Below are positions 15,451 through 16,157 of a DNA stretch of 16,673 bases, piece by piece (within the stretch, counting starts at the first letter, position 1; every line of letters begins with the position of its first letter). Source of the DNA: Candidatus Micrarchaeia archaeon (GTDB lineage Archaea; Micrarchaeota; Micrarchaeia; Burarchaeales; JACRGF01); contig JAWCPB010000026.1 in assembly GCA_038870455.1 (NCBI GenBank), positions 1 through 16,673 of the forward strand, given 5' to 3'. A model generated the notes under the pieces. The model saw only the letters and a program-made list of their open reading frames with translations, was not told the origin of the DNA and did no database searches. A program made the translations under genes and the position numbers.

Positions 15451-15730
15451 TCAGCGTTTTTTCGCCGCCGGCTTTTCGAGCGCTTCAATCTGTTCAACAA
15501 GCTTTTTCCTTAGCTCGAACGGGCTCCTGCCGAGAAAGCCCTGGTCCACGCTCACGCCTTCCACGTGAGACAAGACGATTTCAATGGACTCCTGCGCAGC
15601 ACGCCCATTTTGACGAGCACGCGCTTGTTGGTCACGCCAAACTCAGTGGTGAAATACGCGGCCACCGCCTTTGCCACGTCGTAAAGCACGAGAAGGATGC
15701 AGAGGGCTGAAAGCAACACGGCCCCACAAC
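15451..15730 (-). pseudogene. Degraded bacterial-PH-domain (bPH_2/YdbS-like) membrane protein
   Basis: Reads ...AVLLSALCILLVLYDVAKAVAAYFTTEFGVTNKRVLVKMGVLR, then after a frameshift near 15593 QESIEIVLSHVEGVSVDQGFLGR-SPFELRKKLVEQIEALEKPAAKKR*. The segment that usually follows LGR in this family is missing, and an in-frame TAG at 15732-15734 cuts off the upstream part. Confidence 0.7.
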
Positions 15731-15779
15731 GCTAACCCACGCGCTCAATTCGGCCGCTGGCTTAATTAGTTTTGCGGAG

Positions 15780-16107
15780 AGCCCCCGGAGGGATTTTCAA
15801 GCCCTTTTCCGCCAACGCTTTTCGGCGCGCCGGAAAAGGGTTTGCGCCGTCAGGCGCTCCTTTTTCCGCCAACGCTTTTCCGAAGCGTCGGAAAAGGGTT
15901 GTTTGAACCCTCGACCTACCGCTTTCTTTCCCTTTCCAGAGGAGGAAAGGTCCGTAACCCCTTCCCAAAGAGGGGGGAAGGTCCAGGACGAAGGGGGAAT
16001 ACCACCCTTTGTCTTACGAGGCGGTCGCTCTCTAGCTAACCACTTTTCCGCCAACGCTTTTGCCGAGCGAAGCGAGGGAAAAGGGTTGACCGCTGAGCTA
16101 CGGAGGC
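15780..16107 (-). tRNA. tRNA-Thr(CGU) with three introns (positions 20/21, 37/38, 59/60)
   Basis: Exons 16107-16089, 16031-16015, 15923-15902 and 15793-15780 join to GCCTCCGTAGCTCAGCGGTAGAGCGACCGCCTCGTAAGCGGTAGGTCGAGGGTTCAAATCCCTCCGGGGGCT (72 nt). This folds into a full cloverleaf with a U73 discriminator and no encoded CCA. Confidence 0.93.
15801..16088 (-). repeat. Three copies of a ~45-55 nt hairpin element inside the tRNA introns
   Basis: Identical 18-mer TTTTCCGCCAACGCTTTT (+ strand) at 15805-15822, 15862-15879 and 16044-16061. Each copy is followed by GGAAAAGGGTT, giving a self-complementary unit. Confidence 0.85.
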
Positions 16108-16157
16108 TATATATTTTTGCACCAAAGCTTTTAAATTCAGTTTGCAAAAAAGCCCAC

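Follow-up and report, generated by a model that had tools for sequence, protein, structure and literature searches.

Within the window (the whole stretch of DNA that we analyzed, 16,673 nucleotides), a single tRNA-Thr(CGU) gene carries three introns, two of them built from the same hairpin unit, and the question raised by this locus is whether that unit spreads between tRNA positions, by what route, and how a tRNA gene that has received it would stay functional. The explanation that we favor, and to which we give a probability of about 70%, is that this is a tRNA-Thr(CGU) gene with three introns of the bulge-helix-bulge type, two of which are made of a dispersed, non-autonomous element (here called module A) that is copied without a dedicated transposase. 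The host is a small DPANN archaeon (Micrarchaeota) from a hot spring, with a genome of 1.04 Mb (G000).

A tRNA-Thr(CGU) gene with three introns

Neither ARAGORN nor Rfam detects the tRNA-Thr(CGU) gene in the raw window, where ARAGORN makes no tRNA call. In the genome, ARAGORN makes 25 calls, and no more than 15 sites score above the cut-off of the Rfam tRNA model. Only once the D-loop and T-loop introns have been cut at their best bulge-helix-bulge sites does ARAGORN call tRNA-Thr(cgt), with a canonical intron of 91 nt. Removal of the inserts restores a standard cloverleaf, as judged by ARAGORN and by the four exons, which are identical to those of the orthologue in a same-genus genome (G001) where two of the inserts are absent (Table 1). 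Genes of this kind escape standard tRNA finders.

Table 1. Features of the tRNA-Thr(CGU) gene; positions are those of the window
Feature	Positions	Strand	Details
tRNA-Thr(CGU) gene	15780..16107	(-)	ARAGORN after two-intron excision; exons as in the G001 orthologue; acceptor base 1 at 16107, discriminator (T) at 15780, CCA not encoded
Putative TATA-like box TTTAAAAG	16127..16134	(-)	lies 20-27 nt ahead of the first tRNA base; also conserved in G001
Exon 1	16089..16107	(-)	acceptor 5' strand, D-stem 5' strand, most of D-loop
Intron 1, D-loop, 57 nt	16032..16088	(-)	20/21-type position; bulge-helix-bulge pairs: H 3/4, intron helix 4/4, exon helix 4/4
Module A copy of intron 1	16044..16087	(-)	5' arm AACCCTTTT, inner hairpin, 18-nt core
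Exon 2	16015..16031	(-)	D-loop end, D-stem 3' strand, anticodon stem 5' strand, anticodon CGT, position 37
Intron 2, anticodon loop, 91 nt	15924..16014	(-)	canonical 37/38; ARAGORN i(37,91)
Module B (second dispersed hairpin repeat), inside intron 2	15975..16014	(-)	
Exon 3	15902..15923	(-)	position 38, anticodon stem 3' strand, variable loop, T-stem 5' strand, T-loop to position 59
Intron 3, T-loop, 108 nt	15794..15901	(-)	59/60; bulge-helix-bulge pairs: H 4/4 (TTCA with TGAA), intron helix 3/4, exon helix 4/4
Module A copy 1 of intron 3	15862..15900	(-)	
Linker hairpin GCGCC-TGAC-GGCGC	15844..15857	(-)	between both intron 3 copies
Module A copy 2 of intron 3	15805..15843	(-)	
Exon 4	15780..15793	(-)	T-loop position 60, T-stem 3' strand, acceptor 3' strand, discriminator T

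The assignment of the TATA-like box is an inference from sequence and position. The interval 15794-16088, bounded by the final base of the T-loop intron and the initial base of the D-loop intron, has the anatomy described in the first-pass annotation, with the hairpin unit present once in the D-loop intron and twice in the T-loop intron, and with the linker hairpin between the latter two copies. Both introns start with CAACCCTTTTCC, and their 3' ends, AGCT in the D-loop and TGAA in the T-loop, pair with the exon immediately upstream of the respective 5' splice site, again as had been described. The 18-mer TTTTCCGCCAACGCTTTT occurs at exactly three sites in the window (15805-15822, 15862-15879 and 16044-16061), with 0.04 matches expected from shuffling and four matches reached in 0 of 200 shuffles. 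A 215-nt contig of DNA run X2 spans 15687-15901, the T-loop insert included, with zero differences. Linkers like the GCGCC-TGAC-GGCGC hairpin also connect module A copies in other arrays, and the joined ends of the T-loop intron, as read from the sequence, would resemble a T-arm.

Predicted splicing and the host endonuclease

The hBHBh' form (two 3-nt bulges with a 4-bp helix between them) fits the junctions of both the D-loop and the T-loop intron. A fold constrained to the cloverleaf and two strict motifs has an energy of -142.1 kcal/mol versus -148.6 kcal/mol for the free fold, a cost of 6.5, and its forced pairs are all standard; in the free minimum-energy fold, the central helices of the bulge-helix-bulge junctions are not formed. 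Scoring of all module arrays for bulge-helix-bulge motifs against 3000 random segments had no power and is not used as evidence: with free boundaries, random segments reached 7-8 of 8 exon-side pairs in 1736 of 3000 trials, the best of ~286 boundary pairs being already 6-8/8 in random DNA. The splice sites therefore rest on the exon junctions of the G001 orthologue and on ARAGORN. All three introns of the gene are predicted to be of the protein-spliced, i.e., bulge-helix-bulge, type. In tRNA genes, the terminal copy of module A closes with a GGGTT-like strand and four exon-complementary bases.

A 387-aa ORF on contig C25 matches 4fz2, the epsilon2 EndA of ARMAN-2, over its full length (residues 3-387, E 3e-135). 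By this match, the genome encodes a broad-specificity splicing endonuclease of the epsilon2 type, which is a candidate for cleavage at the non-canonical positions; the ARMAN-2 enzyme cleaves both strict and relaxed motifs in vitro, as described in the text of PMC3239211. The earlier proposal that a host endonuclease excises the element is thus matched by an encoded enzyme, with excision itself a prediction.

Module A is dispersed within the genome and conserved across archaea

In module A, the 5' arm AACCCTTTT is followed by a variable hairpin, and this by the 18-nt core AAAAGCGTTNACGGAAAA. The arm is complementary at 8 of 9 positions to AAAAGCGTT, the first half of the core, with one constant C-C mismatch; the variable hairpin caps this arm-core stem and the tail NACGGAAAA comes after it, the inverted repeat being internal to the conserved unit and the tail lying outside the repeat. 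Arm and core covary, with arm bases 1-2 and core bases 9-8 reading AA/TT in 156 of 188 distinct copies (from G000 and other genomes), and with joint changes to GA/TC (8 copies), CA/TG (2), AG/CT (2), GG/CC (1) and TG/CA (1). The inner hairpins vary from copy to copy and keep their complementarity. Core position 10 is freely variable, and a G at core position 11 is rare (5 of 51 copies), yet present in all three copies of the tRNA-Thr(CGU) gene.

Our search of the host genome identified 51 copies of module A (≤2 mismatches to the consensus core; a reversed-pattern control gave 0), a number that may be wrong, as may some of the intergenic calls, since the assembly is a 90%-complete draft in 51 contigs with many copies at contig ends. 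A tRNA-Arg(CCG) gene that may be split (C11 and C38) and a paralogue on C28 are further uncertain points of this draft. Introns of ~20 tRNA genes hold 30 of these copies, all in the sense orientation and, as read from the listed loci, in the D-loop, the anticodon loop, the T-loop and at 53/54. The other 21 sit in intergenic modular arrays or in a C/D-box-like sRNA (also read from the listed loci), where they are nested in hairpins from which the two 3-nt bulges are absent; some module A copies are outside any tRNA transcript. The open reading frames flanking the arrays include many spurious frames, the genome being GC-rich. The second repeat, module B, gave 16 BLAST hits in this genome and many more in G001; it is in reverse orientation in the T-loop intron of tRNA-Pro(GGG), and both orientations are seen inside tRNA introns. 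The idea that a non-coding element spreads between tRNA positions agrees with this distribution, whereas a targeting of tRNA loops describes 30 of the 51 copies and not the remaining 21.

A search for the unit in other genomes, which the first-pass annotation had suggested, shows it to be dispersed across archaeal lineages as well. The 18-nt core is kept across archaeal phyla, and both parts of module A are present in 61 of 65 archaeal hits versus 0 of 18 bacterial hits, with the 5' arm present in 5 of 22 viral-contig hits. In ANME-1-like genomes, some copies lie inside IS200-type tnpA reading frames, in frame and with no stop codon when inspected by eye. Module A, by this sequence comparison, is far older and wider than one genome. 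Conservation of the core across phyla counts against the explanation favored here, being hard to account for in a purely selfish element with no dedicated enzyme, and suggests a conserved binding partner or a host function.

At its gathering score, Rfam gave no match in the window and only one flanking tRNA for 11 array loci, and the three matches in the window at E up to 10 were all at chance level. The core motif is not mentioned in the literature that we searched, and none of the papers listed for Micrarchaeota tRNA introns deals with repeats, judged by title and abstract; searches tying bulge-helix-bulge introns or archaeal tRNA introns to MITEs returned only unrelated papers. A CRISPR array, considered for the 57-61-nt spacing, was rejected on anatomy, in that the “spacers” consist of the conserved linker hairpin and module arms, with 2-4 units per array and many of these inside tRNA introns. 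A K-turn, C/D box or hammerhead core in the 18-mer was rejected by eye against the consensus motifs, because the would-be UGA base (core position 10) is freely variable.

Introns differ between orthologous genes

Comparison of orthologous tRNA-Thr genes, also suggested earlier, demonstrated that both the presence and the content of introns differ. In G001, the D-loop intron is filled, and the anticodon-loop and T-loop introns are absent; in G013 and G016, which belong to another family, the gene has the anticodon-loop intron only, and this intron carries module A. The T-loop intron, which is absent from all three of these orthologues, looks like a lineage-specific gain, because G001 keeps the D-loop intron only and G013 and G016 carry module A in the anticodon loop. 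By parsimony, the anticodon-loop intron was probably gained in the G000 lineage as well; gain and loss were told apart by parsimony alone, from four orthologues and one metagenome contig.

Turnover extends to other genes. Across the seven tRNA genes that we compared, 4 of 16 G000 introns are missing from G001, and of 13 module A introns, two have an intact core in G001, nine have a decayed, mini or unrelated filling, and two are absent. Copy number differs likewise, with 51 copies in G000 and 12 in its congener G001, and with a range of 0 to 51 among relatives.

Relationships between copies and the search for a mobilizing enzyme

Copy 1 of the T-loop intron is 38/39 identical to the copies in the introns of tRNA-Val(CAC) and tRNA-Pro(GGG), and is nearer to these than to the D-loop copy of its own gene; copies that are 38/39 to 39/39 identical are found in the T-loop of Thr, the anticodon loops of Val and Pro(GGG), and the D-loop of Ala. 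Copy 1 thus reads as a chimera, with a Val/Pro-type body and the Thr-specific G at core position 11, and this G, common to all three Thr copies, points to exchange inside the gene. The suggestion that the locus records transposition within a single gene is therefore consistent with the shared G but not with the closer kinship of copy 1 to the Val(CAC) and Pro(GGG) copies. The same composite, two copies joined by a linker, fills two T-loops, those of Thr(CGU) and Lys(CUU), as well as the Val(CAC) anticodon intron, and the flanks of the two T-loops are nearly identical (one mismatch in 20 nt upstream, 10/10 downstream). The junctions that we read show no consistent fixed-length target-site duplication or target motif. 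The T-loop inserts do show T-arm-like repeats, but the palindromic T-loop and the splice motif would yield them anyway.

No linked transposase or nuclease was found. Among five Pfam families tried on the 90%-complete draft, Y1_Tnp, DDE_Tnp_1, rve and RVT_1 had no match in G000, and the TnpB zinc ribbon scored below cut-off. Nine of 61 relatives have a Y1_Tnp match, but the seven genomes that contain 7-51 copies of module A (G000, G001, G013, G016, G017, G025 and G039), one of them 100% complete, gave none.

Proposed explanation and alternatives

We propose that module A multiplies where additional structured RNA is tolerated, i.e., in tRNA loops, pre-existing introns, C/D-like sRNA and intergenic leaders, and that in the leaders it builds up tandem arrays together with linker hairpins and further modules. 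At a tRNA gene, its junctions would fold into a bulge-helix-bulge that the host epsilon2 endonuclease can cleave, and this predicted cutting would keep the tRNA functional. Spread would occur at the DNA level, by tandem duplication and by copying guided by homology, i.e., ectopic gene conversion or template switching, either from one module copy to another or from one conserved tRNA arm to another, with no dedicated transposase. The sense orientation of all 30 tRNA copies counts against such a DNA-level model, being a prediction of an RNA-level route, and fits only through homology-guided copying or selection.

An RNA-level route, in which excised introns are circularized by tRNA ligase, reverse-spliced into bulge-helix-bulge-like RNA sites, and returned to the genome by reverse transcription and recombination, would account for this orientation (30/30), for insertion exactly at potential bulge-helix-bulge sites in four different loops, and for the T-arm-like joined ends of the T-loop intron. 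We nevertheless regard it as improbable, as no reverse transcriptase domain is found in the 90%-complete genome, 21 of 51 copies lie outside tRNAs in hairpins that do not have the two 3-nt bulges, module B occurs in both orientations within tRNA introns, and the tandem arrays with identical linkers resemble DNA slippage. Slightly less probable again is that module A is a non-autonomous transposon of a classical kind, MITE- or REP/REPIN-like, mobilized in trans by a transposase, e.g., of the Y1/HUH type, that is encoded elsewhere, unassembled, or viral or plasmid-borne. Its mismatched inverted-repeat arms and conserved single-stranded tail may resemble the hairpin ends read by HUH enzymes, and the copies inside IS200-type tnpA genes of ANME-1-like genomes, the viral-contig hits with a 5' arm (5/22) and the unequal copy numbers of congeners (51 vs 12) point the same way; Y1_Tnp, DDE_Tnp_1, rve and TnpB were not found in G000, however, Y1_Tnp is missing from all seven high-copy genomes, the complete one included, and the junctions read show no consistent target-site duplication or motif.

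Module A may instead be mainly functional rather than selfish: the host would retain it in pre-tRNAs, sRNAs and leaders as a conserved binding site or fold, for example one recognized by a processing factor or one in which CUUUU, AAAAG and GAAAA form three strands. This reading is unlikely, though it comes somewhat ahead of the two routes just described: it draws on the 17 fixed core bases over many archaeal lineages, on the presence of both parts in 61 of 65 archaeal hits, on an arm-core stem kept by covariation with a C-C mismatch that is never repaired, and on the mirror arrangement AAAAG...GAAAA beside CTTTT, a symmetry confirmed in the sequence. Against it stand copy numbers of 0 to 51 among relatives, orthologous sites in the sister species that are empty or hold decayed copies, in-frame copies within unrelated ORFs, and the fact that no one context is common to all copies. 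To a single old local duplication within tRNA-Thr(CGU), with no mobility, we give next to no credence: the G at core position 11 in all three copies of the gene would fit, but 48 more copies lie elsewhere in the genome, three orthologues have no T-loop intron, and T-loop copy 1 is nearest to copies of other tRNA genes. With 51 dispersed copies and differing orthologues, the scenario of one old local duplication fails.

Beyond the explanation of this gene by a dispersed element copied at the DNA level, we tentatively raise a wider possibility, which we think rather doubtful although less so than any of these alternatives, that module A is an undescribed archaeal mobile mini-element (9-bp stem, fixed C-C mismatch, exchangeable apical hairpin and fixed ACGGAAAA tail), moved by machinery common to archaea instead of a transposase of its own, which becomes a tRNA or sRNA intron wherever the flanks of a hairpin loop close a bulge-helix-bulge. 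If true, module A would be a living source from which non-canonical introns arise in archaea, and would account for their clustering in lineages whose endonucleases have broad specificity. This case gives a concrete handle on how archaeal tRNA introns arise and move, with a moving unit that can be written as ~30 conserved bases, for which two congeneric genomes show filled, empty, mini and decayed states at orthologous sites, and that connects tRNA introns with an interspersed repeat also living outside tRNAs.

Comparison with known systems

REP, BIME and REPIN elements are short, palindromic, non-coding bacterial repeats, often in intergenic tandem clusters, with tens of copies per genome and with RAYT Y1 transposases. 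Module A is likewise a short palindromic non-coding repeat with tandem clusters and tens of copies; it differs in that its high-copy genomes have no Y1_Tnp, in that it lies within essential RNA genes from which it is predicted to be removed as introns, and in that it is conserved across phyla rather than within a species. In-frame insertion into protein genes is known from Rickettsia palindromic elements and is seen, by eye, for some module A copies in IS200-type tnpA of other archaea, whereas the copies in G000 are in RNA genes and spacers. Unlike a MITE, module A shows no consistent fixed-length target-site duplication at the junctions read, and no related autonomous transposase element was found with the five Pfam families in the 90%-complete draft.

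Transposed bulge-helix-bulge tRNA introns were reportedly described in Thermoproteales by Fujishima, Sugahara, Tomita and Kanai in Mol Biol Evol in 2010. These introns differ between close relatives, and their transposition, the mechanism of which is unknown, is thought to occur at the DNA level under the bulge-helix-bulge constraint (PMC4090602; 10.64898/2026.10.13.758758). Like these families, G000 has highly similar intron sequences at different positions of non-orthologous tRNA genes, and G000 and G001 differ in intron presence (4/16 absent). Unlike them, the host phylum is the DPANN Micrarchaeota, the repeated unit is a defined two-part hairpin element of 30-45 nt rather than a whole intron, and module A, which refills existing introns, is also found beyond tRNAs, forms tandem arrays and extends over many archaeal lineages.

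In Candidatus Micrarchaeum acidiphilum ARMAN-2, tRNA introns are found at 59/60 as well as at 53/54, and the D-arm of a tRNA-Pro is odd, as given in the text of PMC3239211. G000 shares these features with it, along with the phylum and the enzyme type. The text of PMC3239211 mentions no repeat family inside the ARMAN-2 introns, although its supplementary intron tables could still bear on this point; in G000, introns of ~20 tRNA genes carry such a family.

Structure of the tRNA-Thr(CGU) gene

By reading the sequence, we identified on the minus strand of the window a tRNA-Thr gene with anticodon CGT, split by three inserts, which is invisible to both ARAGORN and Rfam in the raw window sequence. 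Excisions around the repeat copies were enumerated and scored on strict bulge-helix-bulge geometry, i.e., two 3-nt bulges flanking a 4-bp central helix, with cleavage following the second base of the bulge. The top-scoring excision removes a D-loop intron together with a T-loop intron, and ARAGORN then reports a tRNA-Thr(cgt) with a canonical intron. In this solution, the intron 3′ ends singled out in the first-pass annotation, AGCT in the D-loop and TGAA in the T-loop, are strands of the central helices. In a genome of the same genus (G001), the same gene, with the same upstream sequence, has an uninterrupted anticodon loop and T-loop, which fixes the exon junctions independently of the bulge-helix-bulge scoring. 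A fold constrained to the cloverleaf and both bulge-helix-bulge motifs has an energy of -142.1 kcal/mol, versus -148.6 kcal/mol for the free fold, in which the central helices are not formed. The anticodon intron is built on a second dispersed hairpin repeat, module B, at window 15975-16014. A further locus in the source genome (G000), on contig C28, is base-for-base identical to the first ~90 nt of this gene, including the D-loop intron; it has a different upstream sequence, terminates at the contig end, and may represent a paralogue, stub or strain variant of the gene.

Coordinates of the tRNA-Thr(CGU) gene and related features
Feature	Location	Strand	Remark
tRNA-Thr(CGU) gene	window 16107 to 15780	-	
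D-loop intron	window 16088-16032	-	57 nt
Anticodon intron	window 16014-15924	-	91 nt
T-loop intron	window 15901-15794	-	108 nt, position 59/60
Thr-like 5′ gene part	G000 C28:14100-14191	+	
Intergenic array	G000 C1:57100-57650		just upstream of gene start
Intergenic array	G000 C9:30900-31350		just upstream of gene start
Intergenic array	G000 C18:7650-8350		just upstream of gene start
Intergenic array	G000 C32:1-650		just upstream of gene start
Intergenic array	G000 C19:1000-1400		just upstream of gene start
Intergenic array	G000 C44:1-200		just upstream of gene start
Module B in tRNA-Pro(GGG) T-loop intron	G000 C39:4260-4295; G001 L249		reverse orientation
C/D-box-like sRNA	G000 C6:23090-23220 (L231)	-	
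Orthologue of C6 sRNA	G001 C2:20828-20990		
tRNA-Arg(CCG) 5′ half	G000 C11:9330-9560	+	
tRNA-Arg(CCG) 3′ half	G000 C38:1-190	+	
Endonuclease-domain ORF	G000 C2:67400-68460 (L044 1468-2526)	-	352 aa

Sequence and structure of module A

The earlier observation that one hairpin unit recurs in the D-loop and T-loop introns is correct and far from chance, with its 18-mer occurring three times in the window versus 0.04 expected. Across G000, this 18-mer has 50 matches at ≤2 mismatches (reversed control, 0), and the genome's own consensus core, with A at position 11, has 51. Alignment of the copies defines module A as an optional C, AACCCTTTT, a short hairpin with a stem that varies between copies while keeping its complementarity, and then AAAAGCGTTNACGGAAAA. 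Ten of the 18 core positions are invariant across the 51 copies, and position 10 is free. G at position 11 (G-11) is present in only five, i.e., the three of the window's gene, the paralogue-like 5′ gene part on C28 and a truncated C32 copy.

We analyzed covariation in 188 distinct copies from G000, its relatives and other archaea. In 156 copies, arm bases 1-2 combine with core bases 9 and 8 as AA/TT; in a further 14, both have changed jointly, with five different compensatory pair types (GA/TC 8, CA/TG 2, AG/CT 2, GG/CC 1, TG/CA 1), counts that overstate the number of events because related copies are not independent. One or both pairs are broken in 18 copies, some of which are probably wrong arm assignments. 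This covariation therefore indicates that AACCCTTTT pairs with AAAAGCGTT, in a stem whose C-C mismatch is never repaired; the tail NACGGAAAA shows conservation at the sequence level only. Intron-terminal copies in tRNAs usually gain GGGTT-like bases able to pair with AACCC instead, a pairing that supplies the helix on the intron side of the splice motif.

Location of module A copies in the source genome

Using our own reading of the loci to assign contexts, we place 30 of the 51 copies within tRNA-gene introns or immediately adjoining tRNA genes, all of them sense-oriented with respect to the tRNA. The hosts are Thr(CGU), the Thr-like gene part on C28, Thr(GGU), Lys(CUU), Val(CAC), Pro(CGG), Pro(GGG), Ala(CGC), Ala(GGC), Gln(CUG), a gene called Gln(UUG) by ARAGORN, Cys, Ser(GCU), Leu(GAG), Glu(UUC), Phe, Arg(UCU), Arg(CCG) and one unnamed tRNA gene; Thr(UGU) has a copy with three mismatches. 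Counted by intron, 11 are in D-loops, nine in anticodon loops, four at 59/60 and two at 53/54.

The remaining 21 copies are in intergenic arrays or, in one case, in a C/D-box-like sRNA. Array copies of module A are embedded in, or concatenated with, other repeated hairpins, namely module B, a long hairpin C, a module D and a GCGCC-loop-GGCGC linker. Rfam finds no family in the arrays apart from one neighbouring tRNA. Several arrays are at contig ends, so that some may belong to longer introns. Those tabulated hold modules A and B, a 15-bp hairpin GGAGGTATCGGAACCAACGAT...ATCGGTTGGTTCTGATG with loop inserts, and a GGAACC-rich module. Module B has 16 BLAST hits in G000 and many more (dozens) in G001, and both species carry it in the tRNA-Pro(GGG) T-loop intron.

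The sRNA (GTGATGA ... GATGATGA ... CTGA, with a TATA-like box upstream) contains module A between its two halves, where the G001 orthologue has only AACCC-TTTC-GGGT; an sRNA-like locus of a further relative (G017, L089) has module A at the same relative place. Downstream of the 5′ half of tRNA-Arg(CCG) (acceptor GCCCTCA, anticodon loop) are a module array and a T-run; the matching 3′ half (T-arm, acceptor TGAGGGC) lies behind a contig-initial module array. These halves represent a split tRNA gene or else a single long intron interrupted by an assembly break.

Intron turnover and origin of the T-loop intron

The G001 tRNA-Thr(CGU) gene has the D-loop intron, with a G-11 core and a diverged inner hairpin. 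The orthologues in another family of the order (G013 and G016) have neither D-loop nor T-loop intron, and carry an anticodon-loop intron with a long-form module A. Only G000 among these four genome orthologues has the T-loop intron, so parsimony favours a gain there. This intron also appears to be missing from a metagenome contig of DNA sequencing run X1, from the same study, which matches the window on either side of 15796..16089. The 36 other letters between the matches read as the central part of a Thr(CGU)-like tRNA, free of introns and with a different anticodon stem, so the habitat probably also contains a relative lacking these introns. Run X2 has a 215-nt contig spanning 15687-15901 with zero differences, which is not independent because it is also from the same study.

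In seven tRNA genes compared between G000 and G001, i.e., Thr(CGU), Lys(CUU), Val(CAC), Pro(CGG), Thr(GGU), Ser(GCU) and Pro(GGG), 4 of 16 G000 introns have no G001 counterpart (Thr(CGU) anticodon and T-loop, Ser(GCU) anticodon, Pro(GGG) D-loop). For the 13 module-A introns of these genes, G001 has an intact core at two (Thr(CGU) D-loop and Val anticodon loop), a decayed, miniature or unrelated filling at nine, and no intron at two. For example, in G001 tRNA-Lys the D-loop intron consists only of a AACCCTTT-GCC-AAAGGGT hairpin and the 24-nt T-loop intron lacks module A, and the Pro(GGG) anticodon intron is ~40 nt in G001 versus three intact module A copies in G000. This filled-versus-miniature pattern extends beyond tRNAs, to the sRNA on C6. 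Module A thus appears both to have created introns in the G000 lineage and to have refilled existing ones, and the copy numbers (51 in G000 versus 12 in G001) agree with a recent expansion.

Copy 1 of the T-loop intron is identical at 38 of 39 positions to copies in tRNA-Val(CAC), where it is also present in G001, and tRNA-Pro(GGG); its sole mismatch is G-11, common to the D-loop copy of its own gene. Copy 2 has ~90% identity to several copies. The same layout of two copies plus linker is present at Val (37/38), at Lys (59/60) and within several arrays, and the exon flanks of the Lys and Thr T-loop introns are nearly identical. We interpret the T-loop intron as an array copied from another locus, with subsequent or simultaneous exchange with the D-loop copy. 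The transposition within a single gene originally proposed keeps partial support from the shared G-11, but a pure intragenic jump fits less well, copy 1 being nearest to Val and Pro.

Predicted processing and proposed mobility

Contig C25 encodes a 387-aa protein with an end-to-end match to the ARMAN-2 epsilon2 splicing endonuclease (4fz2; E 3e-135), and a second G000 ORF, on C2, has a tRNA-intron-endonuclease domain. The N-terminal half of the C2 product is low-complexity and basic in appearance. Searches of G000 for Y1 transposase, DDE transposase, rve integrase and reverse transcriptase found none, and a TnpB zinc ribbon match was under the cut-off. Nine of 61 relatives have Y1 transposases, which are absent from the module-A-rich genomes. 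The first-pass view of a mobile element is largely right, except that the element is neither tRNA-specific, given the 21 copies elsewhere, nor confined to this gene, and no transposase is visible. Both the splicing and the mode of movement of module A introns are what we infer.

Distribution and comparison with known systems

Module A matches are present in 31 of the 61 genomes of the class, with at least three in 15, versus never more than two per genome in the reversed control; one family (f7) has the long form, with ~55 nt from arm to core. A prokaryote-wide scan with one genome per species found at least 118 stretches; among the 80 loci listed, record titles are archaeal for 62 and bacterial for 18. 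The 5′ arm lies ≤90 nt upstream in 61 of 65 archaeal and 0 of 18 bacterial matches listed, and as we estimate that 596 Gb would yield ~70 hits by chance, the bacterial matches are probably chance. Three Clostridia-type loci (L102, L126, L133) have the 18-mer with common flanks (…aacataag + core + gagta…atccagagagag…) and without the archaeal 5′ arm, which looks like an unrelated conserved bacterial leader.

Labels among the matches listed include Methanophagales/ANME-1, Bathyarchaeia, Thermoplasmata, Methanocellales, Methanosarcinales, Altiarchaeota, Aenigmatarchaeota, Woesearchaeota, Nanoarchaeota, Iainarchaeum, Undinarchaeota and Micrarchaeota, and their contexts include tRNA D-loops, anticodon loops, T-arms, tRNA flanks, spacers and IS200-type tnpA frames (ANME-1-like). 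Of the 65 matches listed, 11 have a T-arm-like motif within 160 nt on the same strand and 2 have one on the other strand, versus 36 of 1063 control positions. Five of 22 viral-contig hits have the arm, one doubtfully. In five ANME-1/Methanophagales-like loci (L091, L120, L147, L138, L100), a minimal module A of ~30-40 nt is embedded in IS200-type tnpA frames, with the frame preserved and no stop, at either of two codon positions; two of the three reading frames of module A are open.

Our literature search and Rfam returned no defined, phylum-crossing two-part hairpin element as a repeated unit, and nothing on such an element living outside tRNAs or on refilled introns. Parts of PMC3239211 describe the heavily disrupted tRNA genes of ARMAN-2 and its epsilon2 enzyme. 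For Thermoproteales, PMC4090602 describes tRNAs that share similar introns at differing positions, a similarity read as transposition by an unknown mechanism, probably at the DNA level.
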